Positions 3,032-49,200 of a DNA stretch of 64,000 nucleotides are shown here, one piece after another (the stretch's first letter is position 1; every line of letters starts with the position of its first letter). The stretch is from an uncultured bacterium (GTDB lineage: Bacteria; Bacillota; CAZWXO01), in contig CAZWXO010000001.1 in assembly GCA_964637885.1 (NCBI GenBank), positions 112,731-176,730 of the forward strand, in the 5' to 3' direction. The notes under the pieces are model-generated. The model was given only the letters and a program-made list of their open reading frames with translations, was not told the origin of the DNA and did not search any database. The translations under genes and the position numbers were made by a program.

Positions 3032-3289
3032 ATGAGAAAAAAGATTAACCTAGTAATTGCAGCCTTGTTTTTAATGTTTTGGTTTGGAATTGTCGACATT
3101 TCAGCTGTAGGACATGCTGAGGATAGTTTTTATACTTATGAGGTTAGCCCTGGGGATAGTGCCTGGCAAATTGCGCATAACTGCACTGAAGACAACGTGG
3201 ATTTATTGGCCGAAAGCATCATTGAGTACAATAATCTAAACAGTTCTTCTTTTTTACAACCGGGAATGTTGCTTGAAATCCCAAAATAA
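3032..3289 (+). CDS. yneA: YneA-like SOS cell-division inhibitor (small membrane protein with a LysM domain)
   Basis: It is divergent from lexA, as yneA is in B. subtilis. The 86-aa protein has an N-terminal TM segment (LVIAALFLMFWFGIV) followed by a LysM domain (YEVSPGDSAWQIAH...LQPGMLLEIP). I place the start at ATG 3032 (MRKKINL) because the ORF-track start at 3014 lies inside a LexA box. Confidence 0.6.
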   Translation: MRKKINLVIAALFLMFWFGIVDISAVGHAEDSFYTYEVSPGDSAWQIAHNCTEDNVDLLAESIIEYNNLNSSSFLQPGMLLEIPK

Positions 3290-6353: not shown

Positions 6354-6428
<75 letters not shown>

Positions 6429-12553: not shown

Positions 12554-13519
12554 TTAAGAAAATTCATCATATTCTTCAAAGGCCTTTTTAATACGTTTCT
12601 TTTTTACAGCAGAATTATTAAGTGGATTCGATGCTTCTTTCGCACCTGCCACTTGCACAGGGTCATTCTCCCCGTTTAGGATAGCGTTTACGTGTGCTAA
12701 GGATGGCCTCCTATTAACTACTGTTTTATCACAAGCGGCAAGAACTTCTTCAAGAGTTAGTTTTTGTTCTTCAAACCATGACTTGATCAATTTCTTTTCT
12801 GGACCGGTGAGGGTGCGCTGTAAAGAAAGGTAATCAGCTATTTCTTTCTCATAAGATTTTTCAGTAAATTTTTTGTCAAAATATTCTTTAATCATAATTT
12901 TGTCTATCTTGCCGGCGCCTATCAATTCATGAACTACTTTTTCGATATATGCAATATTCAAGACACCTTTCTCATAGTGTCTTTCTAAAATTGTGATGAC
13001 GGCGTCTTCTTCAATTTCAAGACAATCAACCCATTCAGAGACACTGTCAATTTCCTGAAAATTCAGCGGTCGTCCTAATGCATTTTCCATAAAGCGATAG
13101 ATGCGTTTTCGTGTTCCCCGCAATTTTTCTGTTTGATTACTTTCCTTATTAATCGAGGAATCGCTGCAATCCTTGTGTAACGGATTTATTGCCATCTTAT
13201 TATTTGAAAATGAATTTTGCTGTGCAATACAGTCATAATTAATACTAAATCCGAAAGTTTGAGTCTCGTCAACATTTAACAAGCCGATATCGATCAAATC
13301 TTGGACAATCAGTTTGCAGCTGGTCATCTCCTGACTTAAACCATTTTGCCCTAAATCCCCCATGTTATCCAAACGATATAAAAGATAAGTGAGCTTTCCC
13401 AACAATAAAAATTTATCCGTGCTGGAAGCATTGTCAATGTATTTTAATAAAAATTTTGGAATTGCGATGCTACCATAACTGATAGATGCACCAAAATAGC
13501 TATCCATTAACGTCCTCAT
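12554..13519 (-). CDS. dnaB: Replication initiation/membrane attachment protein DnaB (DnaD-domain family)
   Basis: The 321-aa protein is immediately upstream of and abuts dnaI, matching the dnaB-dnaI operon of B. subtilis. The call rests on context plus DnaD-like domain composition. Confidence 0.6.
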   Translation of the reverse strand: MRTLMDSYFGASISYGSIAIPKFLLKYIDNASSTDKFLLLGKLTYLLYRLDNMGDLGQNGLSQEMTSCKLIVQDLIDIGLLNVDETQTFGFSINYDCIAQQNSFSNNKMAINPLHKDCSDSSINKESNQTEKLRGTRKRIYRFMENALGRPLNFQEIDSVSEWVDCLEIEEDAVITILERHYEKGVLNIAYIEKVVHELIGAGKIDKIMIKEYFDKKFTEKSYEKEIADYLSLQRTLTGPEKKLIKSWFEEQKLTLEEVLAACDKTVVNRRPSLAHVNAILNGENDPVQVAGAKEASNPLNNSAVKKKRIKKAFEEYDEFS

Positions 13520-15656
13520 TTTCTCCAGTAGGCAATAGCATCAGCCTATCACCGGTAGCAATTGCAGTAGTATATTGCGCTTTTTCCTCGTTTAGCTTTA
13601 GTTCAAAGTTGTTCCCTAATTTGTCGATTTCGATTTCAGCATAACGAAATACATCAGAAAAAATGGCCTCACCCGGGTATATTTGGAGGCTGTCTCCATG
13701 TTTTAAGAGATAGGAGTTTTTGACTTTTTTCCCGTTCACTTTACAAGTAGCATTCGTAGTTTGGATTTTCAATGGCTTGCCGTTAAATTGAACTTCGATA
13801 AAAGTATAATCGTTATCGCGCATCACATCATTTACTGTCGGTTCGATGAAGACAGAGCTTTCAATACAAATTGAGTCACCGTCATTAACGAGCGAGCTTA
13901 ATTCAGCTGGTTTGCCATTTAATGTAATACCATAATTAGTGCGAATATTTTTAATCTCCGTGCCATTTACCCAATAGCTAAATGTTTCGGCTAGGTAGTC
14001 CTCGGGATAAAGCCGAACTGCCCGTAATGTTTCTTCTAGTGATTTTGGGGAGATAATGCGAATCTTATCCTGATCTTGGATTAGAAAATCGTCAAAAGAA
14101 AAAACACCGTTTCGTAAAACAATGGCTGGAAGCTGGAATGGAGTATCATTGACTGAAATAGTAGTTTTCGAAATGGGCGGCAGGTATTCTGAAATTCTTG
14201 CCAGTCCTACTTCACCTTGGCTGCCGGGTAAAATATCAATACTATCTCCGTTCATAATTTCAGTATCGAGATTAATCTCTAACCCGTTTCGTGTGATCTG
14301 AGATGGAATTCCAGGTTTGCCCTTAATCATGCAAATTTGGTCGTTAAGCTCAAAAGTAACAGCTTTTCCGATATTTCCTCTTATCTCACGCAGTGGAATG
14401 CCAGAAGCCAAGATAGCATCTTTGGCAGTTATGCACCCCAGATGGATAATGCGAATATTTTTATTATTTACTCTAACATTGCAGTGCATCAATTCAGAAT
14501 GTCTCGTATGTGATAAAGCTATGCCAAGTGGTGTGACAAATTCTGGTCCAGTCATTTTTAAATGACCACTGATATTTTTAACTGCGTCTGTTCCTCGTAT
14601 CGCAACGCGGACTTTTTCGATTCCAAGTCGCTCCGATATTTTTTCTGGTAAGCCTGGAGTGAGGCTTCCTCCGCCAACGCAAAGCACTGCGTCTGGAGCA
14701 CAATCGTTTAATGCTAAAATGCGGTCAGCGATGCTTGCTGCCAATTCTTTGACAAATGGTGCGATCTCTTCATAAATATCGACTGACTTTTTCTCAATAG
14801 ACTGTCCTAAAATATTTTTAAATTTAATTGCCTTTGATTTACTGAGGGTTTTCTTGATTTTTTCAGCAACAGCAAATTCAACCAGATGCTTCTTACAGAT
14901 GGCATCAGTTATTTCATCTCCAGCCTGGGGAACCATACCATATGAGAAAATGGAGCCGTCACGACTGATAGCGATGTCAGATGTTCCAGCCCCGATATCC
15001 ACAAGGACTATATTTAGGTTTCTCATATCCTCGGGAATCACAACATTGCTTGCAGCAATCGGCTCTAAAGTCAGGCCCGCCAATTCTAGGCCAGCCAGCT
15101 CCAATGCTTTCTCTAGGGAATCAACCACAATGCGCGGCAAGAATGTCGCAATAACTTCAATAGACAATTTTTCTGCCCTTTGACCGACAGGATTCCGTAT
15201 TCTCTCATCGTCCAATGAATAACTAATTACATTATAGTCGATGCAATAATAATTGCGCATATCCATTTTGTTTGCCAGAGACTCAGAAGCAACCTGCGTC
15301 GCCTCAATTTCTACTGCGGTTACATCCTCACGAGAAACCTCATCGACAGAAAGAAATTTGCGACTTGCTTTGCCGGTATGTGTTTCGAGTGAACGGCCCG
15401 CTGCAGCTACAATTGCTCCTTTAATTGCCGTTCCTGTGGAAGATTCCAGCATTTTTTTTACTTTATCGACAACAATGGCTACCTGCTCAATGTCTTGGAT
15501 CTGACCATCGTGCATTGCCCTAGTAGTGTGTTCGACAGAATGGCAGGCTAAAACATTTAATTTGCCGTTTTCGACATTGCCGATGATGCCGGTAACAGTC
15601 CGAGTGCCAATATCGAGGGCTGTAATTATTTGCGTTGCTAAATTCACTTTTTCCAC
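13500..15656 (-). CDS. FtsA-like actin-fold ATPase with about 300 aa of repetitive C-terminal extension
   Basis: The N-terminus (ALDIGTRTVTGIIGNVENGKLNVLACHSVEH) matches the FtsA phosphate-1 region, and a second phosphate motif (VLVDIGAGTSDIAI) is present. The C-terminal about 300 aa hold at least five beta-rich modules with a V/F/L-N-G...GD-x-I-x-I pattern. Confidence 0.5.
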   Translation of the reverse strand: MEKVNLATQIITALDIGTRTVTGIIGNVENGKLNVLACHSVEHTTRAMHDGQIQDIEQVAIVVDKVKKMLESSTGTAIKGAIVAAAGRSLETHTGKASRKFLSVDEVSREDVTAVEIEATQVASESLANKMDMRNYYCIDYNVISYSLDDERIRNPVGQRAEKLSIEVIATFLPRIVVDSLEKALELAGLELAGLTLEPIAASNVVIPEDMRNLNIVLVDIGAGTSDIAISRDGSIFSYGMVPQAGDEITDAICKKHLVEFAVAEKIKKTLSKSKAIKFKNILGQSIEKKSVDIYEEIAPFVKELAASIADRILALNDCAPDAVLCVGGGSLTPGLPEKISERLGIEKVRVAIRGTDAVKNISGHLKMTGPEFVTPLGIALSHTRHSELMHCNVRVNNKNIRIIHLGCITAKDAILASGIPLREIRGNIGKAVTFELNDQICMIKGKPGIPSQITRNGLEINLDTEIMNGDSIDILPGSQGEVGLARISEYLPPISKTTISVNDTPFQLPAIVLRNGVFSFDDFLIQDQDKIRIISPKSLEETLRAVRLYPEDYLAETFSYWVNGTEIKNIRTNYGITLNGKPAELSSLVNDGDSICIESSVFIEPTVNDVMRDNDYTFIEVQFNGKPLKIQTTNATCKVNGKKVKNSYLLKHGDSLQIYPGEAIFSDVFRYAEIEIDKLGNNFELKLNEEKAQYTTAIATGDRLMLLPTGENEDVNG

Positions 15657-16149: not shown

Positions 16150-16495
16150 AATTGTCCGAGTAAACCTATAAGCCGAATTCTGTAATAGCAGCCATTTATC
16201 TAGGACAGTTATTGCTAACTGCCTCAAGCGACCTAACCCGGGAGAAAGGCGGGCAACCCTATTTCTCCTCTATTTGGTCTTGCTTCGAGTGGGGTTTACC
16301 TGGCCAAAGAGTCACCTCTCTGCCGGTGGGCTCTTACCCCACCATTTCACCCTTACCATCAATAAAGATGGCGGTATATTTCTGTGGCACTTTCCTTGGA
16401 GTCGCCTCCACCGGGAGTTACCCGGCACTCTGCCCTATGAAGTTCGGACTTTCCTCGGAGTTACCCCCGCGACTGCTCAGTTTGCTCGGACCATA
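16150..16495 (-). ncRNA. rnpB: RNase P RNA (rnpB), bacterial type A
   Basis: The minus strand reads ...GAGGAAAGTCCGAACTTCATAGGGCAGAGTGCCGGGTAAC...ACAGAAA...ACCGCC...GGTAAGGGTGAAATGGTGGGGTAAGAGCCCACC...CAAGACCAAATAGAGG...GGTCGCTTGAGGCAGTTAGCAATAACTGTCCTAGATAAATGGCTG...ACAGAATTCGGCTTATAGG. These are the universally conserved P4, P10-12, P15 and P18 segments. Helix P1 forms from GTCCGAGCAAAC at the 5' end and GTTTACTCGGAC at the 3' end. The plus-strand ORFs 16212..16529 and 16274..16498 are spurious. Confidence 0.85.
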
Positions 16496-18403: not shown

Positions 18404-18479
18404 TGGTGGGAACAATAGGGCTCGAACCTATGACCCCCTGCTTGTAAGGCAGGTGCTCTCCCAGCTGAGCTATGCTCCC
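18404..18479 (-). tRNA. tRNA-Val (anticodon TAC)
   Basis: The reverse complement is GGGAGCATAGCTCAGCTGGGAGAGCACCTGCCTTACAAGCAGGGGGTCATAGGTTCGAGCCCTATTGTTCCCACCA. Confidence 0.85.
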
Positions 18480-18486
18480 AAATTTT

Positions 18487-18561
18487 TGGTGACCCCACCG
18501 GGATTCGAACCCGGGTTACCGCCGTGAAAGGGCGATGTCTTAACCGCTTGACCATGGGGCC
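18487..18561 (-). tRNA. tRNA-Glu (anticodon TTC)
   Basis: The reverse complement is GGCCCCATGGTCAAGCGGTTAAGACATCGCCCTTTCACGGCGGTAACCCGGGTTCGAATCCCGGTGGGGTCACCA. Confidence 0.85.
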
Positions 18562-18565
18562 ACGT

Positions 18566-18640
18566 TGGTGGGCCCACTAGGGATCGAACCTAGGACCGAC
18601 CGGTTATGAGCCGGTTGCTCTACCGCTGAGCTATAGGCCC
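18566..18640 (-). tRNA. tRNA with anticodon CAT (Met, or Ile2 if lysidinylated; resembles Bacillus tRNA-Ile2)
   Basis: The reverse complement is GGGCCTATAGCTCAGCGGTAGAGCAACCGGCTCATAACCGGTCGGTCCTAGGTTCGATCCCTAGTGGGCCCACCA. Confidence 0.75.
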
Positions 18641-18648
18641 AAATTAAA

Positions 18649-18723
18649 TGGCTCCCCGAGTAGGATTCGAACCTACGACCCTCCGGTTAACAGCCGGATG
18701 CTCTACCGCTGAGCTATCGAGGA
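18649..18723 (-). tRNA. tRNA-Asn (anticodon GTT)
   Basis: The reverse complement is TCCTCGATAGCTCAGCGGTAGAGCATCCGGCTGTTAACCGGAGGGTCGTAGGTTCGAATCCTACTCGGGGAGCCA. The antisense ORF 18358..18555 is spurious. Confidence 0.85.
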
Positions 18724-27487: not shown

Positions 27488-27666
27488 ATTATACCTCACT
27501 TAGTGCTAACTAATCGCGAGCTTAAAACGCATTAGGCGCTGACAACCACTTTCTAAACAATGGCTATCAGCGCGGTGAATCATGCGCGAAGAGCTTCTCC
27601 GGCAACTAGTTGATTTGAAAAGTTGCTAAGAGTAACAATTCTACAGAAAAATATAAAAATCCTTTA

Positions 27667-30288
27667 TCATAGAAAATTATTTTTTACTACAACGACATAA
27701 CTTTCGTCGACAAAATCAATTTCTAAATGAGAATTATTTAAAATCTTATCTTCAATAATTTCTTTAGCGATTAAGGTTTCGATGTTGCGTTGGACGTAAC
27801 GTCGCAGCGGACGCGCCCCATATGCATAATGGTACCCCCTTGAAACAATTGTGAAAATGCATTTCTCCGTTAAATCAATAGTAATATTTCGGTCAGATAG
27901 CCGGCTCTCAACCTCCTTGACAATCAAATGAATAATTTGACCAATCTCATCTTTGCCAAGCGGGTTGAATATTGTGGTCTCATCGATCCGGTTCAATATT
28001 TCAGGGCGGAAATATTTTTGCAGCTCTAAAATAACCATATTTTTTATTGCGTCGCTGATAAATCCCTCAATCTCCATTTGTTTCAATAGAATCTGGGAGC
28101 CAATATTAGAAGTAAGGATTATAATAGTATTCTTAAAGTTTATTTTTCTCCCTTGCGCATCAGTTAATTGCCCTTCATCAAGAAGTTGTAATAAAATATT
28201 GATAACATCCGGGTGGGCCTTTTCCACTTCGTCGAATAGTACCACGCTGTACGGTTTGCGTCGAATTGCCTCGCTTAGCTGGCCTCCCTCATCGTAGCCG
28301 ACATATCCTGGTGGTGCTCCGATCAGTCTTGACACTGTGTGTTTTTCCATGTATTCACTCATATCGATGCGAATTAAATTGTGTTCATCATCAAAGAGTA
28401 CAGCGGCCAAAGATTTAGCCAGCTCAGTTTTGCCAACGCCAGTCGGTCCTAAAAAAAGGAAAGAACCTTGCGGACGCTTGGGGTCATTAATGCCGGCACG
28501 TGCACGAAGGATGGTATTGCTTACCAAAGAAACAGCCTCGGCTTGGCCGATTACCCTTTGCTTCAACTCGTTTTCCAGGGTTAGTAACTTAATCTTTTCC
28601 GATTGCAATAGTTTCGACAGTGGAATTTTTGTCCATCGCGAAATAATTTCAGTAATTTCATCTTCGGTTACGGCCTCTCGAACCAAAACATCAATACTAT
28701 CTTTAGAAGAGTCGATAACTTTTTGAATCGCTGCAATATCTTTTTCAAGTGCCGGAATTATGCCGTATTTTATTTTAGCTGCTTTTTCATGATCATACTC
28801 ACGTTCAGCAATTTCTTCATTATGATGTGCATGTTCCAAATCCAATCGTAATTTTTTTAATTGACTAATTTGCCCCTTCTCTCCATTCCATTGCAACATC
28901 AAAATATCCAGCTTTTCCTGTTGCTCTTGCAATTCAAGCTGAATGTCAGCCAATCTTTTTTTGCTGTCGCTATCTTTTTCTTTTTGCAATGCCATAATTT
29001 CGATTTGAAGTTGGTTTATTCTTCGAGAGATTTCATCGATTTCCGACGGCATCGATTCGATTTCGGTCCTTAGCATGGCACATGCTTCATCGATCAAATC
29101 GATAGCTTTATCGGGCAAGAAACGGTCGGTAATATAACGATGGGATAGCTTGACTGCAGCTACAATTGCGCCATCATGTATGCGAACTCCATGGTATGTT
29201 TCGAATCTCTCCTTGAGACCTCGCAGGATAGAAATACTTTCATTGACGTCGGGCTCCTCAACGCTCACAGGTTGAAAACGTCGCTCTAATGCGGCATCTT
29301 TTTCAATATGCTTGCGATATTCATCGTTAGTCGTAGCTCCAATGCAATGCAACTCACCTCTGGCTAGCATTGGTTTTAAAAGATTGCCAGCATCCATCGC
29401 TCCTTCTGTTTTTCCTGCTCCAACGATTAAGTGAATTTCATCAATAAACAGGATGATGTTGCCGACAGAGTTTTTTATCTCTGCCAGAACAGCCTTTAGT
29501 CTCTCCTCAAATTCGCCTCGATATTTCGCGCCAGCTAGCAGTGCTCCAATATCGAGTGAAAAAACTTTGACACCCTGCAAGCTATCAGGAACATCCCCAT
29601 TTTTTATACGCTGGGCTAATCCTTCAACAATCGCAGTTTTACCAACGCCGGGCTCACCTATCAATACGGGATTATTTTTAGTTTTGCGCGATAAAATGCG
29701 AATAACATGCCTAATTTCTTCATCGCGTCCGATGACTGGATCAAGCTTCCCTTGAATCGCCTGAGCTACGAGTTCGACTCCGTACTTGCTGAGTGCTTCG
29801 TAAGTATTCTCGGGATTTGCACTAGTAACACGCTGATGGCCGCGGATATCTGACAACACTGAAAAAATTCTGTCGCGATTGATGTTTAAAAGATTCAAAA
29901 GTCTTTCAAGGTCACGCTCTCCAGGCTTCTCAGCTATTCCGAGAAGGAGATGCTCCACAGAAATATACTCATCTTTAAGGCGTCTTGCCTCAGCCTCAGC
30001 GATATTTAACGCTAAAGAAAGTGAGGCGTCTACCATTAATGAGTCTTTACTTGTGGATGTTTTGCTATGTTTCGGCTTCCGATTAATTATGGCCTCGATT
30101 TCCACGATGAAGTTTTCGATGTCTGTGCCAAGCCTTTTTAGTAAGGGGGCAACCAAACCACCCTCCTGCAAAATCAAAGCAAGGAATAAGTGACTGCATG
30201 AAATTTCATTATTCCCATGTTCCATTGCAATATTACTAGCCTGGTGAAAAGCTTCTTGCGATTTTTGTGTCAGGCGATTAAAATCCAT
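27667..30288 (-). CDS. clpB: Chaperone ClpB (Hsp104-type disaggregase)
   Basis: It has two AAA+ modules ([18 protein letters not shown] and [16 protein letters not shown]) and a long M-domain coiled coil between them. Confidence 0.95.
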
Positions 30289-30302
30289 CGTGCTTCCCCT
30301 TC

Positions 30303-30623
30303 CTAGAGCTGTTTTCGCATTATTGCCAGCTCTCGTGTTAATTTAGCGTTCTCGTGCAATAAATCGACAATCAGAGCAGCACCTGGCCAATTTATACCGA
30401 GGTCGTCGTGAATCCGTCGCACTTCCTCTAATCGATCTATCTCGTCTTGCCCAATTAGGGGGTTTTCCATGGTTCCTTTGTAGAGGATAATACCCATTTC
30501 GAGCATTCTAGCAATAAAATCACAACTCACTGAAAGGGCGATCGCCGCCTGATCTATACTAAAATAATCTCCCTCCAATGAGACGCTTCGTTTCTCAATC
30601 CAAAAATTAACCATGGGATTCAC
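30303..30623 (-). CDS. cbpM: Chaperone modulator CbpM (MerR-like fold)
   Basis: The 106-aa protein has a C-terminal region (GINWPGAALIVDLLHENAKLTRELAIMRKQL) that aligns with E. coli CbpM ([30 protein letters not shown]). It overlaps cbpA by 17 nt. Confidence 0.75.
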   Translation of the reverse strand: MNPMVNFWIEKRSVSLEGDYFSIDQAAIALSVSCDFIARMLEMGIILYKGTMENPLIGQDEIDRLEEVRRIHDDLGINWPGAALIVDLLHENAKLTRELAIMRKQL

Positions 30624-31542
30624 CTTCTTTTTTCGGGTTTGCTGCTAAATTATCAATGGCCACTAATTTTTCAACAAGATCCAATTGCTCTTTTGATAAA
30701 TGCTTAGGGATTTTTACATTGGAAATGACAAATAAATCGCCAAACCCCTCTTTTTTTGGCAAACCCTTCCCTTTTATGCGCAGTTTTTGACCAGTCTGAA
30801 TACCAGCTGGCAAATTAATCTCTAACTTTTTTGCATCAATGGTTTCAATGACTATTTTGCCCCCAAGGGTTGCTAACCAAGGACTAACATTTAATTTAAA
30901 ATATAAGTCGTGGTCAATTACTTCATACTGAGGGTGAGGCTTAAAAGCAAGTTTAATCAGTAGATCTCCCCGCGTTCCTGACGAAGTAAGGCTACCTTGT
31001 CCTCGGAGACGAATTTTGGTCTCATTTTTAACACCGCGAGGTATCTTAAACTCAACGCTTCTCAACTCATCATTATCGGCGCTCGATAATTGTATTTTTT
31101 TAGTAGCCTCTTTAAATGCCTCCACAATTTCTATTTCAATATCTACTTGCGTCTCTCGGCTTTGCTGAAAAGGATTGGCCCCCTGTCTTCTGCCGGCATA
31201 GGCCGAGCCAAACAAAGACTCAAAAAAATCGCTGAACTCTCCAGAGGAAAAGCCTTGTGTATTCTCGCCCTGAAATCCCCAAGGCGAACCAGAGAAGCTA
31301 GCATTTTTATCCCAATTAGGACCCAGCTGGTCATATTTTTTGCGCTTGTCGGGGTCTTTTAAAACCTCATATGCTTCATTGATTAATTTAAATTTTTCCT
31401 CTGCGTCCTTTTCTTTGTTGACATCGGGATGATATTTCCTTGCTAAGCGTCGATAAGCAGCTTGGATATCCTTTTGCGTGGCGCTTTTATCAATTTCAAG
31501 TTTATTATAATAATCAACAAATTGTACGGGCATTACATTCAC
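30607..31542 (-). CDS. cbpA: Curved-DNA-binding protein CbpA (DnaJ-like; J-domain plus C-terminal domains, no zinc finger)
   Basis: It has a J-domain (YYNKLEIDKSATQKDIQAAYRRLARKYHPDVN) and a G/F region, but lacks CxxCxGxG repeats. It sits directly upstream of cbpM. Confidence 0.8.
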   Translation of the reverse strand: MNVMPVQFVDYYNKLEIDKSATQKDIQAAYRRLARKYHPDVNKEKDAEEKFKLINEAYEVLKDPDKRKKYDQLGPNWDKNASFSGSPWGFQGENTQGFSSGEFSDFFESLFGSAYAGRRQGANPFQQSRETQVDIEIEIVEAFKEATKKIQLSSADNDELRSVEFKIPRGVKNETKIRLRGQGSLTSSGTRGDLLIKLAFKPHPQYEVIDHDLYFKLNVSPWLATLGGKIVIETIDAKKLEINLPAGIQTGQKLRIKGKGLPKKEGFGDLFVISNVKIPKHLSKEQLDLVEKLVAIDNLAANPKKEGESHG

Positions 31543-31583
31543 CTCTTATTAAAAGCTCCCGCCGAAACGGGAGCATTTAAGAA

Positions 31584-33458
31584 CTAATTTTCTGTGTAGT
31601 CGGCGTCAATTACGTCGTCACTTGACGCGCCAGGGGTTGCCGAATCAGGATCTTGGCCTTGTCCCGATGATGCAGAAGACATTTGATAGATTGCTTGCTG
31701 CAAATCTTGCGTTTTTTTCTTGATGTCCTCAACTGGATTATCATTCTCAAGAGCATTTTTTAAATCTTGAACAAGCATTTCCGTATGCCCTTTTAGATTA
31801 ACTGGAGCGCTCTCTGGTAAATCTTTCACTGCTTTTTCCGCCTGATAAATCATGCTATCCGCTTCGTTTCTAATTTCAATTTTCTCACGTTTTTCCTTGT
31901 CAGTAGCCGCATTGAGTTCACCTTCCTGGACCATTCGATCGATTTCACCTTTATCGAGATTTGTGGAACCGCTTATCGTTATTTGCTGGGCTTTGCCGGT
32001 TTGCTTATCCTTGGCAGAAACAGTAAGAATACCATTTGCATCGATATCAAAACTCACTTCAATTTGGGGAATGCCCCTAGATGCCGCGGCTATGCCTTCT
32101 AGTTTAAATTGTCCAAGTCGTTTATTGTCAGAAGCCAGCTCTCTTTCCCCTTGCAGTACAACTATATCAACTGCTGGTTGATTGTCCTCGGCAGTTGAGA
32201 AAACTTCAGCTTTTTTAGCAGGAACAGTTGTGTTTCGCTCAATAAGTTTTGTCATCACTCCACCAAGTGTTTCAACTCCGAGAGACAGAGGCGTCACATC
32301 CAACAAGAGTACATCCTTAATTTCTCCACTAAGGACGGCTGCTTGAACTGCAGCCCCGATTGCAACAACTTCATCTGGATTCACGGACATGTTAGGCTGC
32401 TTTCCACCTGTTAACCTTTTAACAAGTTCTTGCACGGCTGGTATACGCGTTGATCCACCAACGAGAATTACCTCGTCGATATCCGCTTGAGAAACTTTTG
32501 CATCATCCATGGCTTGCCGAACTGGGTGTTCGGTTCGTGTTATTAGGTCAGCTGCCATTTCCTCAAATTTGGCCTTGGACAAAGATAGCTCCAAATGCTT
32601 TGGGCCATTAGCGTCGGCACTGATAAAAGGCAAGTTAAGCATGGTCTGGCTTGTTGAGGATAATTCAATTTTTGCTTTCTCTGCGGCTTCAAAAAGTCGT
32701 TGTAATGCTTGCCGATCGTTTTTAAGATCGATGCCGTGTTCTCGCTTATATTCCACAACCATCCAGTCGACTATCCGTTTGTCGAAATCGTCGCCCCCAA
32801 GATGAGTATCGCCAGAGGTCGACTTAACTTCAAAAACTCCGTCGCCAACATCGAGGAGAGACACGTCAAAAGTTCCTCCTCCCAAATCATATACAATAAT
32901 AGTTTCGTTCTTCTTTTTATCAAGGCCATAGGCTAGCGAAGCTGCAGTGGGTTCGTTAATAATGCGCAAAACGTTTAGACCAGCAATCTGACCTGCGTCC
33001 TTAGTTGCTTGCCTTTGCGCATCATTAAAATACGCGGGCACAGTAATAACAACATCTTTTACTTTTTCTCCTAAATATTTTGAGGCGTCATCAGCTAGTT
33101 TGCGCAAAATTTGGGCGCTTATTTCTTCGGGAGATACTATTTGACCTTCAATATCAAACCTAATACTATCATTTGGTCCCTTGATAACTTTGTAAGGGAC
33201 CATTGATATCTCATTTTCTACTTCGTCGTACTTCCGGCCCATGAAACGCTTAACAGAAAAAATTGTCCCAGCATGATTTAAGACAGCTTGCCTTTTTGCT
33301 AATTGTCCGACCAACCGATCACCATTCTTTGCATAGGCGACAACAGACGGTGTAGTTCTGCCTCCCTCGGCATTCGCGATGACGACTGGATTGCCGCCTT
33401 CCATAACGGCAACAACCGAATTAGTTGTACCTAAATCGATTCCGATTGCTTTTGCCAT
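31584..33458 (-). CDS. dnaK: Second Hsp70 (DnaK paralog)
   Basis: It carries the full Hsp70 signature ([35 protein letters not shown]). A canonical dnaK lies in the hrcA operon at 61286..63112. Confidence 0.9.
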
Positions 33459-33504
33459 AGTAAATTCCTCCTTGGTTTATCTTATGTCATTATATTATCA
33501 CGAT

Positions 33505-33521
33505 AGTCAGAGATAGTCAAA
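33505..33521. promoter_or_regulatory. CtsR-type operator (tandem heptad AGTCAGA-GAT-AGTCAAA) overlapping the dnaK2 promoter
   Basis: AGTCAGAGATAGTCAAA fits the consensus RGTCADN-NAN-RGTCADN. The -35 TTGACT of the minus-strand promoter (TTGACT, 17 nt, TAATAT) is the reverse complement of the second heptad. The RBS AAGGAGGAA precedes the ATG. Confidence 0.45.
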
Positions 33522-34344
33522 CTTTTCTTATTCTTTCTTTATCAATTATTTTCGATTTGATCCTTTGTAAGTAATCGTACCTTGCGATATTCCAAAAAGT
33601 TACTGTGGCCTCAGAAGGTTGGATTACCACTTTTTTTATCGATTCCTTTGGCTTTATTTCGCAGCCGTCAACAGCTACTCTTACGCCTCTTAGCTCAGGA
33701 AAAAGAACATTAAATTGTATTTTTGCCTCGGCTGGAACTACTAATGGTATCTTAAGCGGGAGATTTCGGGCACTGTCGTTTGGGTGCATCGGGACGAGTT
33801 CGAGGCAATGCAACGAGTGGTGAATGGCTGCGCCACCTGCCCACACAGCGTATGCAGTTGAGCCTATTGGGGTCGTCACAATATAACCATCCCCAGCAAA
33901 ATAATTTAAAGGTGTGTCGTCAATCAATAACTCAAGCTCCGTTAAGTTCATTGTGATTCTTTCAACGACTACATCGCCTATAAAACAGTGTGACAAAGAC
34001 GTGTCATTGATATCTGTCATAATGACATCAAACATCGGATAAGTAAAAACCTCGTAGTCACAAGAGACTATTTTTCGGACCAGTTTTTCTACTTTTTCAG
34101 AGCGCTCATTCATCAAGAAACCAAGTGTTCCAGTATTGATTCCGATGAAAGGCATCTTTCGATGCTGATGGTTTTTGATAGCATGAAGCATTGTCCCGTC
34201 CCCACCAAGAACAATTATCACGGAGGCTGCTTCTGTGCTCTGGTCTTCCGTAAGGATTTCAATGTCGAATTTATTAAATTCTTCAATAATTCTATGCGCA
34301 ATTTCGTAATCGCTCGGTTTGTTCCAAATCAAGATTGCTTTCAT
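33517..34344 (-). CDS. nadK: NAD+ kinase
   Basis: It has the GGDGT motif (VLGGDGTMLHA) and an NAD-kinase C-domain. Confidence 0.85.
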   Translation of the reverse strand: MKAILIWNKPSDYEIAHRIIEEFNKFDIEILTEDQSTEAASVIIVLGGDGTMLHAIKNHQHRKMPFIGINTGTLGFLMNERSEKVEKLVRKIVSCDYEVFTYPMFDVIMTDINDTSLSHCFIGDVVVERITMNLTELELLIDDTPLNYFAGDGYIVTTPIGSTAYAVWAGGAAIHHSLHCLELVPMHPNDSARNLPLKIPLVVPAEAKIQFNVLFPELRGVRVAVDGCEIKPKESIKKVVIQPSEATVTFWNIARYDYLQRIKSKIIDKERIRKV

Positions 34345-34436: not shown

Positions 34437-37400
34437 TTGATTGGAGTGAAAAAGGTGATTATACTTGGTGTCTGCATTGGTTCCCATTCAATATCTTGGA
34501 CTTTATTAGATAAAAAAGATTTAATAAAAAATCAAATAATCAAAAACGGGTATCTGCAACATCATGGCAGGCCTGTTGATTGCGTTAAAGAATTGATTGA
34601 TGACATGGAAAATCTTTATGACTTGGTTAATATTACAGGAAAGAATCTTATCTTTGCAAAGGAAATGAATTACATTCCTGAGGTAGAGTCAGTTGAATCA
34701 TCGTATAAGTTTTTCAAATCTAAGTATACTGGAATCGATGGGATTATTGATTGTGGCGCGGAAACTATCTTTTACTATCCAGTTGATTCCTTCGGCAACA
34801 TAATTGATGTTGTGGCTGGAAATAAGTGTGCTTCGGGAACAGGAGAGTTTTTAGTCCAGCAGATTAAGCGAATGGGTCTAGAAATCGAAGAAGCTAATCT
34901 CATCGCCGATTTAGAAAATTCTTATGCTGTGGCTGACCGCTGCTCGGTTTTCTGTAAAAGTGACTGCACCCATGCTCTAAATAAGGGTGTAAGCAAGAGC
35001 CGTGTCATCGGTGGTCTAATAAAAATGATGGCTAACAAAGCTCTCAATCTCATTGACGGATGCCAGAATAAAACTATCATGATAATTGGTGGCATGGCCT
35101 GCAATTACAAATTTGTGGAAGCTATGCGAAGCTCGGTAAAAGAATTAGTGGTTGCCGACGAAGCTGTTTTTTTTACATCGGTAGGTGCGGCCATGTCTGA
35201 ATCAAGAAATCAAAGTTTTAAATATAGCAATAGTGAGTGCTGTGCTGAAAATGCAATCAAGTACGAGCCGCTCGATGCATCCAGCACCGTTGAATTCATG
35301 ACCTGGCCGACATTGAGTAATGATCTTGTCACCTTGAGCAAAGAGATGAAGTTTGTTTTGGGGATCGACATTGGTTCGACCACAACCAAGGCAGTAATAG
35401 TTGACATTGATTCAAAAAAAATTATCGCTTCAAATTATTTACGCACCCACGGCGACCCTATTTTAGCCGTGAAAAAATGCCTCCAGATGATCATAGATGA
35501 GCATCGCGCTATTGATCGCGTCGAAGGGATAGTGACAACAGGCTCGGGCAGAGTTATCGCTTCTTTGTATTTAAATCAATGCCTCAACGTCAATGAAATA
35601 TTGGCGCATGCTAAGGCTGCCGTGTTTTTTGACGAGGATGTCGACACTATTTTCGAAATCGGCGGGCAGGATGCCAAGTATACTTTTTTAACAGGTGGTG
35701 TTCCTTCAGATTATGCGATGAATGAAGCTTGCTCTGCTGGAACAGGCTCGTTTCTCGAAGAAGCAGCAAAAGAATCTCTTTCAATCGCAACTGAAAAAAT
35801 CGGTGATTTCGCCAAAAAAGGTGATTCGCCTCCACACTTTAACGATCAATGTGCTGCTTTCATCGGAAGTGATATAAAATCGGCTATTCTTTCGGGCATC
35901 TCCGTAGAAAATATTTGTGCTGCGCTTGTTTACTCGATTTGCAACAATTATTTAACGAGGGTCAAGGGTAACCGCACCGTTGGGAAAAAAATTTTTATGC
36001 AGGGAGGGGTTTGTTTTAACTCAGCTATACCGATAGCGATGTCAAAATTGTTAAAAAAACCTGTTATTGTTCCACCGCACCCCGGATTGATGGGCGCTTT
36101 TGGAGCATCTTTGATTTGGATTGAAAAATGGCAACGCAACGATATTGAAGTGACACCCAGCGATATCAGTGATTATTTAGTGAAAAGCGTTAATTATTTA
36201 GCCCCCTTCTTTTGCCATGGCGGTAAAGAAAGGTGTGATCTGAAATGCCAGATCAGCCTAATCGAAATTGACACGAAGAAAATGTCTTTTGGGGGTGCAT
36301 GTGATAAGTATAATAGCAAAACTGATACTAAAGAAAAAAATAGTGAAAGAATTGATAAACTTGACTTGGTATCTGCATATGAGAAAATAATTTTTGCCCA
36401 ATCTAAGGATGATTTGACACAAGAAGTCAATAAGAAAAAAATTATCTTAACAAAGTCCTTGATGATGAACTCTTTTTTCCCACTGTTTTCAACTTTTTTT
36501 AAAGAGCTTGGGCTAACTGTCACGCTTATTGAATTTGTGGATGCCCATATTACGGGTGATTTCGTTTCCGAATTTTGTTACCCTGTCATGCATGCTCACC
36601 GCCTTGCAGTTGCTGCGACAACAAAAGAGGCCGATTATTTTTTTCTTCCTCATATAAAGAATGTGCAAACCTTTAATGGGCAAACCGGAACCTTATGCCC
36701 ATTTGTGCAAGCCAACCCGTACATGACAGATAGTATTCTTGCTTCATTAGAGTCTAAAATGCGCTTGCTCAGACCTATCATTAATTTGACTAATGATTAT
36801 GCTGACAGCGAGCTGTCTTTTCTCGATTTGGCTCAACAACTCGGTTTTACACAAAAACTGGCTAAAAAAGCCTTCGATACAGCTGTCACTACGCAATTAG
36901 CAAGGGAATTAGAAATTAAAACAAAGGTCTCGGCAGCTTTTAAAGAAATGGAAGAGACAAATGCATTAGGGATTGTGGTTTTCGGTAGAACATATAATGC
37001 TTTTGCCTCCGACTTGAACATGGGAATAACAAAAAAAATAGCTTGCAAGAATTATTACGTCTTCCCCTGTAATTATATTTTAGATGGCATGCGGAATTTA
37101 GCCGAGCAGGAAATGTACTGGGCTAGCGGACAGTACATTGTCGAAGCGGCAAAATATGTCTCTCAGCATCGCAATTTATTTGGGGTTTATATTACCAACT
37201 TCAGTTGCGGACCTGATTCATTCTTGTTGAATTATTTCCGCAATATAATGGGCGGCAAGCCTTCGCTAACTATTGAGCTTGACGGGCACACCTCTAATGC
37301 TGGAGTTGAAACTAGAATCGAGGCTTTTGTCGATATTTTGGAGAACTATCGACAGATTATAAATGCAAGCAAGGCAACTCCTCAAAAAAGTGATTTAGAT

Positions 37401-38627
37401 ATGGCTAAATCTTCGCTACCAAAGAAATTAACAAGCGGACGCTCGGCGATTATAGTGCCCTCAATGGGCGGATACTCAGCTGCTTTACTGGCAAAAGGTT
37501 TTGAATATCTAGGATACCATTCAATACCTTTACCAATTCCAACTTCAGAGAATCTTCGAGCAGGTCAATCTTTAACAACATGCAAAGAATGCCTACCATT
37601 TAATCTGGTCTTGGGGAGTATTTTAGATTACCTACGACAGCATGAACTGGAAACAAAATATGACTATAATATTTTCTTGCCAACTGCTAATGGCCCATGT
37701 CGATTTGGGCAATACACAAAGTTAACGAGAGACGTCTTGGCCAAAGAAGGTTATGGGGATATTGATTTTCTAACGGTATCCTCAGAAGACAGCTATAATT
37801 CTTTCAGTCGGAATTTCATGCTCAGATCATGGCTAGGCATTTTAACCAATGACCTATTGAGTGACATGAAGTCAGCGCTCCGTGTTTCTGCAAAACACCC
37901 AGGGCCAGCTCTTGAAATATTTGATACTTGTGTAAAAAGAATAATTGAAAGATTTGCCACTTCAAGTATCAAAGAAATATTCGAGGAAATGCGTAAATCT
38001 GCCCAAGAATTAGCAAACATTGAAAAACAACATAATCTCAATAATCTGCCTGCCGTATATATTATCGGGGAGATTTTTGTTCGACGCAGCGATTCATGCC
38101 AAACAGAAGTAATCGAAAGATTGCTTGAGCAGTCAATTATTCCCGTTATTGCACCGATCCACGAGTGGGTATATTATTGCGACTATTTAGAGGAAAATGG
38201 TATTTTAAAACAAATCAATGCTGTCGACAAGTTGAAGAAAAAGATCGAAATATTTGTGAAAAGATTAATGGAAAAAAAGATAAAAAAGGTTTTTGCTGAT
38301 TGTGGTTTGTTACTCGAAAAGAAAATTTTAGATATAGATAGCATTATTTCTAAAGGTGCGCGTCATCTTGATTTGCAGTTGACAGGTGAGGCAATTTTAA
38401 CAGTTGGTTCCGGAATTGAAGCCCAAGAGAATTATCAAGGGATAGTATCGTTATATCCTTTTGGCTGCATGCCGGGAAGAATTGCTGAATTTTTCCTCAA
38501 GAACGAAAATAAAGGCTATCCCTTTTTGTCATTAGAACTCGATGGAAATAAATTGCCGCCGGTTATCGAAGCCAAGATTGATTCTTTTATCTCTCAAGTA
38601 AAAAGACAAAAACAAGGCAAAAAATAA
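34437..38627 (+). CDS. Fusion protein: two BadF/BadG/BcrA/BcrD (HgdC-like) activase ATPase modules, a DUF2229-like region and a 2-hydroxyacyl-CoA dehydratase (HgdB/D-component-like) C-terminal domain
   Basis: Module 2 begins at about aa 300 with the canonical FVLGIDIGSTTTKAVIVD and the cluster cysteines CSAGTGSF / CAAFIGSD. Module 1 (aa 1-260) keeps the cluster cysteines (CASGTGEF, CSVFCKSDC) but its phosphate-1 motif is degenerate (LGVCIGSHS instead of LGIDxGST). The likely start is GTG 34455 after a GGAGTG RBS. Confidence 0.65.
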   Translation: MIGVKKVIILGVCIGSHSISWTLLDKKDLIKNQIIKNGYLQHHGRPVDCVKELIDDMENLYDLVNITGKNLIFAKEMNYIPEVESVESSYKFFKSKYTGIDGIIDCGAETIFYYPVDSFGNIIDVVAGNKCASGTGEFLVQQIKRMGLEIEEANLIADLENSYAVADRCSVFCKSDCTHALNKGVSKSRVIGGLIKMMANKALNLIDGCQNKTIMIIGGMACNYKFVEAMRSSVKELVVADEAVFFTSVGAAMSESRNQSFKYSNSECCAENAIKYEPLDASSTVEFMTWPTLSNDLVTLSKEMKFVLGIDIGSTTTKAVIVDIDSKKIIASNYLRTHGDPILAVKKCLQMIIDEHRAIDRVEGIVTTGSGRVIASLYLNQCLNVNEILAHAKAAVFFDEDVDTIFEIGGQDAKYTFLTGGVPSDYAMNEACSAGTGSFLEEAAKESLSIATEKIGDFAKKGDSPPHFNDQCAAFIGSDIKSAILSGISVENICAALVYSICNNYLTRVKGNRTVGKKIFMQGGVCFNSAIPIAMSKLLKKPVIVPPHPGLMGAFGASLIWIEKWQRNDIEVTPSDISDYLVKSVNYLAPFFCHGGKERCDLKCQISLIEIDTKKMSFGGACDKYNSKTDTKEKNSERIDKLDLVSAYEKIIFAQSKDDLTQEVNKKKIILTKSLMMNSFFPLFSTFFKELGLTVTLIEFVDAHITGDFVSEFCYPVMHAHRLAVAATTKEADYFFLPHIKNVQTFNGQTGTLCPFVQANPYMTDSILASLESKMRLLRPIINLTNDYADSELSFLDLAQQLGFTQKLAKKAFDTAVTTQLARELEIKTKVSAAFKEMEETNALGIVVFGRTYNAFASDLNMGITKKIACKNYYVFPCNYILDGMRNLAEQEMYWASGQYIVEAAKYVSQHRNLFGVYITNFSCGPDSFLLNYFRNIMGGKPSLTIELDGHTSNAGVETRIEAFVDILENYRQIINASKATPQKSDLDMAKSSLPKKLTSGRSAIIVPSMGGYSAALLAKGFEYLGYHSIPLPIPTSENLRAGQSLTTCKECLPFNLVLGSILDYLRQHELETKYDYNIFLPTANGPCRFGQYTKLTRDVLAKEGYGDIDFLTVSSEDSYNSFSRNFMLRSWLGILTNDLLSDMKSALRVSAKHPGPALEIFDTCVKRIIERFATSSIKEIFEEMRKSAQELANIEKQHNLNNLPAVYIIGEIFVRRSDSCQTEVIERLLEQSIIPVIAPIHEWVYYCDYLEENGILKQINAVDKLKKKIEIFVKRLMEKKIKKVFADCGLLLEKKILDIDSIISKGARHLDLQLTGEAILTVGSGIEAQENYQGIVSLYPFGCMPGRIAEFFLKNENKGYPFLSLELDGNKLPPVIEAKIDSFISQVKRQKQGKK

Positions 38628-47124: not shown

Positions 47125-49200
47125 CTAGATTAACTTACTGATATCGGCAATTTTTAAAGCAGGTTCTACAATTGCAGCCAGCAGAGCCAACCGGTTTTCT
47201 CTAACATCATCATTTTTATCCATAACCATTACCTCATCAAAAAATCGGTTAATCGGATCACAAAACTTCGAGTAAGCATCGAATAGCGCTTCGAATTGTT
47301 CCAGTGAACACTTTTCATGCAGCGTTGAAGATGCCTCCTGGAATATATTACAAAGCGCTTTTTCTGCCTCGTTATCGATTAACGCAGGATTTGGAGGCAA
47401 AAATCTAGTGCGCTTTTTCGAGAGATTGATAGCTCTTTTTAGCGCTAACAGCGTATTCAATTGCTTTTCATCGTTTAAAACTACTTGGATCGCCTTGGCG
47501 CGGAGCGTTACATCAATGATATTTTCCGCTGATACTTCCGTTGTAGCTTCAACAATCTCGTGAGAAATGCCTTGCGCGCTTACCAAGTAAACGATTCGTT
47601 GTTTAACGAAATCCATTAGTTTTTCAATCGATTGTTCATTAATAGAGATATTTTCTTGTGAAGAAAGTATCTCCAAGGTAAACTTAAATATTTCTCGTAA
47701 GCTGAGATTAAAATTGTTTTCTAAAATTATGTTCAAAATGCCGAGGGCTGAACGTCTAAGCGCATAGGGGTCCTGAGAGCCAGTCGGCACTATTCCGATT
47801 GCAAAACAAGCAGTCAATGTATCAATTTTATCAGCGAGAGCCAATATTTTACCAATTCCGTTGGACGGCAACGAGTCACTAGCATGACGGGGGCGATAAT
47901 ATTCGTCAATAGCCTTAGAGATTTCTTGATCTTCTCCATCGTGCTCAGCGTAATATCGTCCCATTATCCCTTGCAATTCCGGAAATTCAAAAACCATATG
48001 CGTTGTTAAATCGGCTTTTGACAATTTAGCTGCGCGCTGAAGCAAAGCAGGGTCAATATCTAAAGTGTTAATCTCTTTTCTTAGATATTCGGCAATCAGA
48101 GCAATTCGATTAACTTTACTATATATCGAACCAAGCTTTTCATGATATGTTACTTTTTTTAGACCATCAACTTTATCCACTAACGGGCGCCTAGTATCTT
48201 CGTGTAAAAAGAACAGAGCATCGGCGAGGCGAGCTCGCAATACTTTTTCATTTCCTTCCCGTATAATTGCATCAGAAACGAGTTTGCCATTGGCGATTGT
48301 AATAAAATGCGGAGCCAATCTAGCATCTGTAAGCCGCCTGACCGGAAAGTAGCGTTGATTCTCCCGCATCGTTGTTATTAAAACTTCTTCAGGCAGCTGT
48401 AGATACTCCTCAGCAAATGAACCCATAATCGGATGTGATTCCTCGACTAAATTTACAACCTCGCTAAGCAGATCCACGTCAATCTCTACAGCTAAGTTGT
48501 TGGATTGTGCTATATCAGTGATTTGAGTTCGAATCATATCGGATCTCGCAGCAATTGACGGAACAACATGATTCTCGAGCAGCACTCGTTCATAATCCTC
48601 GGCCTTTTCTATAGAAATAATATCTGTGGATAAAAAACGATGACCTCTAGTACTTCGGCCACTGACAATGTCGGCAAAGCGTATTGTCAATTCTTGGTCA
48701 TCTAAAAGAGAAATCATCGAGTGAACTGGGCGCGCGAACAAATACCCGCCCATCCCCCACCGCATATTTTTTGGGAAACGCAAACTCGATAAAAGTTCAG
48801 TGACTAGAATCTTTAATAATTCTTGGATGCTTTGACCAGTAATTTTTTTGGTAGCAATCAAATATTCAACGCCATTAATTTCTTCTTTCTTCATTGATTC
48901 CGGGGCAATGCTTTGCGCTTTGGCAAATCCCAATGCAGCCTTGGTAAAATTGCCATCACCATCGAATGCGGCTTTAACAGAAGGCCCCTTGGCAGAAATT
49001 TCTCTGTCGGTCTGGGCTACCGGTAGTCCACTAACTAAAAAGGCTAGACGCCGTGGTGTTCCATATATTTTAATTTCATCGTAGGCGATTCCCTCTTGGC
49101 TAAAACCCTTTTCCAAGTAGGATTTCATGTCTTCAAGGGCTGGCCCAACGAAGGATGATGGCAGTTCTTCTGTTAAAATCTCAAATAAATAATTATGCAT
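47125..49200 (-). CDS. glyS: Glycine--tRNA ligase beta subunit
   Basis: The start is ATG 49200 ([14 protein letters not shown]), overlapping the glyQ stop by 8 nt. The ORF-track start at 49359 is inside glyQ. Confidence 0.9.

Follow-up and report, generated by a model that had tools for sequence, protein, structure and literature searches.

In the dnaK operon of Thermus thermophilus the genes follow the order dnaK-grpE-dnaJ-dafA-clpB, and in Escherichia coli the cbpA and cbpM genes are under stationary-phase (RpoS/Lrp) control and not under that of a heat-shock repressor. A four-gene chaperone cassette that resembles both was found in a 64,000-nucleotide stretch of DNA from an uncultured bacterium of the Bacillota (GenBank assembly GCA_964637885.1, contig CAZWXO010000001.1, positions 112,731–176,730; this whole stretch is called the window below). 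The cassette occupies positions 27667–33521 of the minus strand of the window and consists, in this order, of a second dnaK gene (dnaK2), a J-protein gene, a gene of the CbpM/DafA family and clpB, behind a promoter that carries an operator of the type bound by the stress repressor CtsR. From the comparison of sequences we consider it probable that this is a self-contained disaggregation cassette, acquired long ago by a Clostridia-like lineage of Firmicutes from bacteria with a diderm-type Hsp70 and now most likely controlled by CtsR.

With the Thermus operon the cassette shares the succession of Hsp70, zinc-finger-less type II J-protein, CbpM/DafA-family protein and ClpB; the best solved homologues of DnaK2 and ClpB are Thermus proteins, and clear homologues of the J-protein and of the small protein are found there as well. 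However, grpE, the fifth member of the Thermus-type unit, is missing here while the remaining four genes keep the same order, the Firmicute host also retains a full hrcA-grpE-dnaK-dnaJ operon, the small protein resembles CbpM (E-value of 9e-13) more than DafA (E-value of 1.2e-7), and the promoter has a CtsR-type operator. Thermus is not known to possess CtsR. The E. coli pair is likewise formed by a type II J-protein gene followed by a coupled gene for a MerR_2 protein of about 100 residues, but in the window this pair sits between a dnaK and a clpB of its own, and both of its proteins fall below the cut-offs of the E. coli equivalog models.

The promoter recalls the CtsR (class III) regulon of Firmicutes, which comprises the clpC operon, clpP, clpE and, in Listeria and Lactobacillus, clpB: a tandem-heptad operator lies over the −35 element and the spacer, a Clp/Hsp100 protein is among the products, and the multiple boxes of some relatives of the cassette are reminiscent of multi-site CtsR promoters. 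The difference lies in the operon itself, a four-gene Hsp70-J-modulator-ClpB unit instead of a lone clpB, and in its dnaK, which is a second copy of the diderm type. In some cocci dnaK is under CtsR, but there it belongs to the only, canonical operon; such control is not known for a separate imported dnaK. Outside the Firmicutes the J-protein (about 40%) and the small protein have their nearest relatives in the cbpA-cbpM-clpB triad of Desulfobacterota (DVU1876–DVU1875 in D. vulgaris), in which dnaK, in contrast to the window, usually lies outside the unit and the promoter carries no CtsR-type repeat. The actinobacterial dnaK-grpE-dnaJ-hspR operons also end in a gene of the MerR superfamily, with clpB in the same regulon or adjacent (Thermoleophilia loci L040, L060 and L063), but the small protein of the window fails the HspR model and its promoter shows no HAIR inverted repeat.

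The ingredients are already known, namely CtsR control of clpB, Hsp70-J-CbpM/DafA-ClpB clusters and an occasional insert-bearing Hsp70 in Firmicutes. A literature search found no paper on this cassette, on its recurrence in Clostridia or on its CtsR-type promoter, and nothing specific on a second dnaK in Clostridia or on the PDB entry 9DVI. An earlier reading of the window, made from its letters only (the sequence-only reading), had proposed a second Hsp70 operon wired to CtsR; it mentioned neither a diderm-type origin of the module, nor its resemblance to the Thermus operon, nor its recurrence in a few other Clostridia.

Genes and layout of the cassette

Family scans identified all four genes, which are encoded on the minus strand. 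The dnaK2 gene (31584–33458) encodes a full-length Hsp70 of the insert-bearing (diderm) type with 624 residues, which scores 963 bits with the DnaK equivalog model TIGR02350 (cut-off 823), and it is preceded by the Shine-Dalgarno sequence AAGGAGG, read directly at 33467–33473. It is followed by the gene of a type II (class B) J-protein of 308 residues, similar to CbpA and to the DnaJ2 of Thermus (30607–31533), assigned through the Pfam domains PF00226 and PF01556; the HPD motif is present in the translation and the CXXCXGXG zinc finger (PF00684), which the canonical DnaJ of the window does carry, is absent. The small protein (30303–30614, 103 residues) is placed in the CbpM/DafA family by its MerR_2 domain (PF13591, 62.7 bits with a gathering score of 29). 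The last gene, clpB (27667–30288), encodes a full-length AAA+ disaggregase of 873 residues with the domains Clp_N, AAA, AAA_lid_9, AAA_2 and ClpB_D2-small, which lies just over the cut-off of TIGR03346 (1238.5 vs 1232.1 bits).

The open reading frame (ORF) finder placed the starts of the J-protein gene and of the small gene at alternative GTG codons (31542 and 30623, respectively), both of which fall within a Shine-Dalgarno sequence, GAGGTG in the first case and GAAGGTG in the second. The ATG codons located 9 nt downstream restore the N-termini of the homologues, and the same starts are annotated on the public contig. The J-protein thus probably begins at ATG 31533, giving the 308 residues mentioned above, and cbpM likely begins at ATG 30614, because its N-terminus, MVN(F/Y)W, is then common with the homologues. 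With this start the overlap between the two genes would most likely be 8 nt and not the 17 nt of the sequence-only reading; the genes are translationally coupled whichever start applies. The gap of 14 nt between the cbpM stop codon and the clpB start, also given in that reading, was found as described, and its gene positions, the tightness of the operon and the presence of two full-length dnaK genes in the window were borne out.

The layout shows the four genes as one tight transcription unit, predicted from the sequence, behind a good sigma-A promoter. No grpE was found in or beside the cassette of the window, nor with any of its Firmicute counterparts described below. The cassette is part of a stretch of about 20 kb located between ppdK and dnaG, inside an otherwise conserved gene block, and its G+C content (0.41–0.43) is the same as that of its surroundings; any transfer would therefore be old.

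The CtsR-type operator and its recurrence in Firmicutes

The published consensus of CtsR sites is A/GGTCAAA-NAN-A/GGTCAAA, and the sites are described as overlapping the −35 element and the spacer (PMC12634643). A second paper gives the last position of the heptad as A/T and reports clpB as the most derepressed gene in a ctsR mutant of L. plantarum (PMC3842655). The features of such an operator, i.e. a tandem heptad, an NAN spacer and an overlap with a sigma-A promoter, are all found in the 58 nt that separate the stop codon of the NAD kinase gene from dnaK2. A promoter scan identified here a sigma-A-type promoter (33492–33520, minus strand; 9 of 12 matches plus a TG) whose −35 element TTGACT (33520–33515) and −10 element TAATAT (33497–33492) are separated by 17 nt, the spacer ending in TGn (TG at 33500–33499). 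The transcribed strand reads TTGACT ATCTCTGACTATCGTGA TAATAT and continues into the AAGGAGG ribosome-binding site. The operator is placed at 33505–33521, where the plus strand shows the tandem heptads AGTCAGA-GAT-AGTCAAA (motif AGTCAGAGATAGTCAAA, or TTTGACTATCTCTGACT as read on the transcribed strand), with one mismatch to RGTCAAANANRGTCAAA. It covers the −35 element and the first half of the spacer, the TTGACT falling within the heptad AGTCAAA and the distal heptad within the 17-nt spacer; direct reading of the sequence confirmed in this respect the overlap of the −35 element with the second heptad that had been noted before.

Within the promoter region (33459–33525) no inverted repeat was found and the only repeat is an exact 8-nt direct repeat, GATAGTCA, with a spacing of 10 nt. 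The NAD kinase gene (33517–34344, minus strand; Pfam NAD_kinase and NAD_kinase_C), which lies directly 5' of the cassette and is not a member of it, reaches into this promoter, with its stop codon (33519–33517) inside the −35 element, and no terminator is present between this gene and the dnaK2 promoter.

AGTCAGAGATAGTCAAA is the sole match in the window with one mismatch or fewer to RGTCAAANANRGTCAAA, for which 0.07 matches are expected per 64-kb window, and 7 of 100 shuffled sequences contained a match at this level. When two mismatches are allowed the expectation rises to 0.83 per window and the site at 33505–33521 is still the single match; matches with three mismatches occur in the window at background level. 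The heptad pair lies well above background, and this check, named in the sequence-only reading as one that could refute its CtsR assignment, did not refute it.

The four-gene dnaK-J-MerR_2-clpB unit is present in seven further lineages besides the window: a relative of the window organism with shared synteny (L004), Ca. Formimonas warabiya (L006/L016), Dehalobacterium formicoaceticum (L009), a Peptococcaceae metagenome-assembled genome (MAG; L010/L017), a Clostridia MAG (L011/L015) and two further lineages (L066 and L178). The genes flanking the cassette differ between the Firmicute lineages. One more locus (L177) has dnaK-J only, with CtsR-type boxes and no MerR_2 gene downstream. Nine promoters were compared, those of the window, L004, L177, Ca. 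Formimonas, Dehalobacterium, L010, L011, L066 and L178, and all nine have TTGACY, a 17-nt spacer and a good −10 element; in each of them the second heptad follows the first at a distance of exactly 10 nt. In an alignment of 80 nt anchored at the −35 element the invariant columns are limited to TTGAC, the T in the middle of the 3-nt spacer, the TGAC within the second heptad and the −10 element.

Read in the CtsR orientation, the sites are AGTCAGA-GAT-AGTCAAA (window), GGTCAGA-GAT-AGTCAAA (L004) and AGTCAAA-GAT-AGTCAAT (L177), and the site of Ca. Formimonas, GGTCAAA-GAA-GGTCAAA, is a perfect GGTCAAAGAAGGTCAAA. The remaining sites are GGTCAGC-TAA-AGTCAAA (Dehalobacterium), GGTCAGC-AAA-GGTCAAT (L010), GGTCAAC-AAA-GGTCAAT (L011), GGTCAGT-AAT-GGTCAAA (L066) and GGTCAAT-AAA-GGTCAAA (L178). 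Additional complete CtsR-type boxes are found 3' of the −10 element in L010 and L011 and, in the opposite orientation, 5' of the promoter in L177, and extra tandem CTGAC repeats lie farther upstream in L066 and L178. The region 5' of dnaK2 in L010 (9395–9815) also contains long runs of 7-nt tandem repeats (e.g. CAGTTCT/CAATTCT and CACTAAT/CACCAGT), which directly precede the promoter with its two CtsR-type boxes.

Homologous loci outside the Firmicutes were collected through a small-protein profile scan of 185,579 species genomes with a four-sequence CbpM alignment, in which 144 relatives were confirmed and the best 80 analysed. Four of these best 80 are Firmicute-type cassettes, a rarity to be read as a lower bound on their number since the scan relied on two short peptide patterns; the others belong to Desulfobacterota (mostly cbpA-cbpM-clpB), cyanobacteria, Thermoleophilia, gammaproteobacteria and further groups. 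Most of the 80 loci keep the J-protein gene and the MerR_2 gene adjacent, some cyanobacterial ones having dnaK ... cbpA-cbpM-clpB and the Thermoleophilia dnaK-grpE-dnaJ-X-clpB. In 880 kb of loci the promoter-located CtsR matches (two mismatches or fewer) are confined to the Firmicute cassettes; the seven other matches at this level are dispersed, and three of these fall on a single conserved site within clpB. No CtsR-type motif was found upstream of about 75 homologous loci from Desulfobacterota, cyanobacteria, Thermoleophilia and gammaproteobacteria. Therefore, the repeat tracks the phylum of the host and not the genes of the cassette, and this distribution is the known range of CtsR.

A CbpM alignment of the window lineage gave no close relatives in a genome-contig collection (121 pattern matches, none confirmed), only two matches were obtained when homologues of the CbpM-like protein were sought by a word-based method, the window lineage being very divergent, and among the matches listed for the J-protein alignment against metagenomes there were only relatives at 34–42%, of no use for promoter comparison.

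Some of the loci outside the Firmicutes deserve a description of their own. Pyrinomonas methylaliphatogenes (L014:756–11377) has an island with clpB (divergent), ftsH, a small ORF, dnaK-J-MerR_2 and groES-groEL; in view of this acidobacterial arrangement the trio is an old module with varying partners across phyla. In the Thermoleophilia loci (L040, L060 and L063) the X of dnaK-grpE-dnaJ-X-clpB is CbpM-like by sequence and not a classical HspR, and the DnaK has the insert of the diderm type, which adds a further exception to the indel rule considered below.

A GC-rich hairpin, GCTCCCGTTTCGGCGGGAGC followed by TTTTAATAAG, was located by the terminator scan at 31545–31574 (minus strand), in the gap of 40–50 nt between dnaK2 and the J-protein gene, as a candidate leaky terminator or 3' stabiliser; the stem-loop itself (31574–31555) folds with −18.4 kcal/mol. 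The same hairpin is kept in L004, and L010 and L011 have different ones at the equivalent site.

Several observations weigh against the reading of the cassette as an imported module under CtsR. The distal heptad of the window, AGTCAGA, has a G where the consensus has an A, and the proximal heptad is largely a good −35 element (TTGAC), so that evidence going beyond promoter function comes only from the second heptad and the central T. The nine cassettes share their ancestry and hence do not represent nine independent events. No other CtsR box (two mismatches or fewer) and no typical CtsR target is present in the window, and none of ctsR, mcsA, mcsB and clpC was seen in the roughly 74 kb of host DNA covered, made up of the window and some 10 kb adjoining one of its ends; a tblastn search with a CtsR probe, validated on PDB entry 3H0D, found none in the window or in 1.15 Mb of loci, which is uninformative for the whole host genome. 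The hairpin after dnaK2 has just four U and the equivalent region folds weakly in L006 and L009, and the DnaK tree considered below was built by simple neighbour joining and has no support values.

One alternative is that the tandem repeat consists of a strong −35 element and a fortuitous or structurally favoured repeat, or that it is bound by some other Firmicute protein that recognizes direct repeats, e.g. a response regulator of the OmpR type. The −35 element alone accounts for the TTGAC of the proximal heptad, the 74 kb of host DNA contain no ctsR, and a match with two mismatches is expected almost once (0.83 times) per window. We nevertheless regard this alternative as unlikely, since neither the second TGAC at exactly +10 nor the central T changes in any of the nine promoters, with no such constraint on the remaining spacer positions or the flanks, the match obeys the NAN spacer rule, the site of Ca. 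Formimonas is a perfect GGTCAAAGAAGGTCAAA, and the full boxes away from the −35 element in L010, L011 and L177 go beyond promoter function. As judged from these alignments, promoter function explains the TTGAC but neither the second TGAC nor the central T. The CtsR assignment of the sequence-only reading gains strong comparative support from an architecture that is invariant in nine of nine Firmicute cassettes and missing from homologous loci in phyla without CtsR.

The cassette proteins and their proposed mode of action

The J-protein scores 218 bits with the equivalog model of E. coli CbpA (NF007618, cut-off 403). Its best match in the PDB is 3LZ8 ('Putative chaperone DnaJ'), presumably a CbpA orthologue, and the second is the 'DnaJ 2' of entries 6PSI and 9DVI (178 bits). 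ClpB is closest to 1QVR (925 bits) and DnaK2 to the DnaK of 9DVI (9DVI_B, 774 bits). The proteins of 9DVI (DnaK, DnaJ2 and DafA) and 1QVR are taken here, with the DafA literature as a guide, as those of T. thermophilus. A profile of seven cassette small proteins matches CbpM (3UCS) and the 'Protein DafA' of the same complex (9DVI_S) with the E-values given above. The name CbpM used in the sequence-only reading holds at the level of the family and not at that of the equivalog, as the small protein reaches 27.1 bits with the model of E. coli CbpM (NF007617, cut-off 138).

Thermus DnaJ is of type II, without zinc finger, and forms a 3:3:3 complex with DnaK and DafA from which substrate expels DafA (PMC3727329). 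CbpM and DafA have been described as analogous inhibitors, and DnaJ and DafA of D. vulgaris co-purify with DnaK (PMC3125180). By analogy, the small protein of the cassette is predicted to be a protein-binding modulator of the J-protein and not a repressor.

The opposite possibility, that this MerR-family protein is an autorepressor of the HspR type, with the direct repeat or a nearby sequence as its own operator and CtsR uninvolved, finds some basis in the position of the gene, which is that of hspR in actinobacterial dnaK operons, in a weak match to the HspR model NF047375 (21.7 bits) and in the fact that the profile also matches the small genes between dnaJ and clpB of the Thermoleophilia dnaK-grpE-dnaJ-X-clpB loci. 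However, the match covers the C-terminal half only and is far from the equivalog cut-off of 105 bits, the solved members of the family, CbpM and DafA, bind a J-protein or DnaK and not DNA, and the region 33459–33525 has the direct repeat and no inverted repeat of the HAIR type (CTTGAGT-N7-ACTCAAG). In addition, about 75 non-Firmicute loci have the same MerR_2 gene without the repeat, and L177 has the boxes without a MerR_2 gene. HspR/HAIR autoregulation was rejected on the grounds of the absent inverted repeat and the failed HspR model, and we hold it to be quite improbable.

The Hsp70 of the cassette differs clearly from the canonical DnaK of the window (DnaK1). Both are full-length and share about 56–57% identity, and a 22-residue insert at positions 77–98 of DnaK2 is absent from DnaK1. 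An insert of 21–23 residues in Hsp70 marks the diderm phyla, and Firmicutes lack it 'except for isolated exceptions' (PMC3133647); the cassettes provide concrete members of these exceptions, which is relevant to the use of the indel as a phylogenetic marker. DnaK2 also passes a second DnaK equivalog model (NF001413, 974 vs 648 bits) and stays under the cut-off of the HscA model TIGR01991 (620 vs 709 bits). Its closest named homologues (69–74%) are those of the Peptococcaceae MAG, the Clostridia MAG, Ca. Formimonas warabiya and Dehalobacterium, followed by DnaKs of Desulfobacterales, Pyrinomonadaceae and Binatia (68–70%). In the neighbour-joining tree the Firmicute DnaK2 proteins group in a single clade that falls within the insert-bearing DnaKs and is distant from DnaK1. 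The best solved match of DnaK1 is 2V7Y (801 bits), the DnaK of Geobacillus. These comparisons point to the cassette as a xenolog of diderm type.

That DnaK2 could instead have arisen by recent duplication of dnaK within this genome, or be a specialised Hsp70 of the HscA/HscC type, is hardly credible and was rejected by identity, indel and tree as far as sequence comparison goes: both copies do pass the DnaK equivalog models, but at about 56% identity they are not the near-identical duplicates that would have spoken against the sequence-only reading, they differ by the 22-residue indel, DnaK2 is nearer to DnaKs of Desulfobacterota and Acidobacteria (68–70%) than to DnaK1 (57%), the cassette lies in differing genomic contexts across Firmicutes, and the 620 bits with the HscA model compare with 963–974 for the DnaK models.

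If the cassette is an imported disaggregation module under CtsR, it could work as follows. At normal temperature a CtsR dimer bound to the two heptads would block RNA polymerase, and upon heat or other proteotoxic stress CtsR would be inactivated and all four genes transcribed. The GC-rich hairpin may act as a leaky terminator, or stabilise a dnaK2-only message, and in this way set DnaK2 in excess over the three downstream proteins. The J-protein would bring DnaK2 to aggregates and DnaK2 would hand substrates to ClpB for threading, with the CbpM/DafA-like protein bound to the J-protein and restraining the system until substrate is available, as CbpM does with CbpA in E. coli and DafA with DnaK and DnaJ in Thermus. 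Since the cassette has no grpE, nucleotide exchange would either rely on GrpE borrowed from the HrcA-controlled operon or be dispensable. Read-through from the NAD kinase gene, which the missing terminator would permit, may add a basal expression of the cassette. As hrcA-grpE-dnaK1-dnaJ is under HrcA/CIRCE and the cassette would be under CtsR, the cell would run two Hsp70 systems on two repressors.

A more far-reaching version of this proposal, which we put forward tentatively and with some doubt, is that ClpB needs a co-adapted Hsp70, so that a few anaerobic lineages of Clostridia could gain a disaggregase only through the import of the whole diderm-type module, which was then put under the Firmicute-specific thermosensor CtsR by a second heptad beside the −35 element; DnaK2 would in that case be the dedicated partner of ClpB, either independent of GrpE or sharing it. 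Such an import would amount to a foreign chaperone machine working in parallel to, and insulated from, the native HrcA-controlled Hsp70.

In the imported-module reading the locus would show that a complete disaggregation machine can be passed on as a single cassette even among distantly related bacteria, and that the stress repressor of the recipient can take it over through a few base changes beside the −35 element. It would also offer a natural system for the question of partner specificity between ClpB and Hsp70, and for the division of labour between an HrcA-wired and a CtsR-wired Hsp70 in one cell. At least two carriers are listed under organism names and not as MAGs, Dehalobacterium formicoaceticum (GCA_024705665.1) and Ca. 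Formimonas warabiya DCMF (NZ_CP017634.1, a complete genome), which makes the predictions directly testable.

Housekeeping operon, host and neighbouring genes

The canonical grpE-dnaK1-dnaJ genes of the hrcA operon were located by family scans at 60200–63712 (minus strand), with hrcA and its CIRCE just beyond the end of the window. A perfect CIRCE, TTAGCACTC-N9-GAGTGCTAA, lies at L095:8900–8926, between a TTGACA promoter and hrcA (in full TTAGCACTC-AGCTAGGTT-GAGTGCTAA, region L095:8866–8944), and confirms the HrcA/CIRCE (class I) control that had been anticipated for the housekeeping DnaK.

The host shows the gene order comEA-comEC-holA-rpsT-lepA-hemN-hrcA-grpE-dnaK-dnaJ-prmA-rsmE-mtaB ... phoH-yqfF-ybeY and, further on, era-recO-glyQ-glyS, a gene for a regulator with helix-turn-helix and CBS domains, a kinase/pyrophosphorylase gene ... 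dnaG-sigA-trmK and a NIF3 gene, which matches the chromosome of Bacillus subtilis, and its replication genes include DnaB_2- and IstB-like (DnaI-like) ones; the host is therefore a Firmicute. The RNase P RNA (16153–16488, minus strand, 312 bits) is of class A, which is the type of Clostridia rather than that of Bacilli, and this points to a Clostridia-type host.

The lepA gene directly follows rpsT in the host (L095:5444–7682). In B. subtilis the two are separated by the sporulation genes gpr and spoIIP, and the absence of these genes from this place hints that the lineage may form no endospores, in contrast to Ca. Formimonas, whose cassette (L006) adjoins germination genes of the gerA type.

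Downstream of clpB lie a homoserine dehydrogenase gene (hom) and then lonC, both assigned through Pfam and overlapping each other by 29 nt. The gap of 167 nt between clpB and hom (27500–27666, minus strand) contains no recognisable terminator and no Rfam match, and read-through from the chaperone operon into hom-lonC is possible. On the other side, divergent from the NAD kinase-dnaK2 unit, a gene on the plus strand (34437–38627) encodes a fusion of about 1390 residues with BcrAD_BadFG activator-ATPase domains and DUF2229, which is conserved in L004.

A cluster of tRNA genes (Asn-GTT, Met-CAT, Glu-TTC and Val-TAC) is placed directly 3' of sigA (18404–18723, minus strand), and a lone tRNA-Trp-CCA gene is found at 6354–6428 (plus strand). 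In the region 49193–50150 recO and the start of glyQ are only about 70 nt apart, and in contrast to the T-box-controlled glyQS of B. subtilis no T-box leader reaches the Rfam gathering score there. The listed glyS ORF overlaps glyQ by 167 nt, its true start lying probably farther downstream. Just upstream of the DnaB_2- and IstB-like (DnaI-like) genes, a protein of 718 residues (13500–15656, minus strand) combines actin-fold domains similar to FtsA, PilM and MreB with a weak C-terminal match to Ub-Mut7C, an unusual architecture. Finally, the LexA ORF (2257–3099, minus strand) is 280 residues long and its DNA-binding domain begins at residue 68, which suggests either a true start farther downstream or an unusual N-terminal extension.

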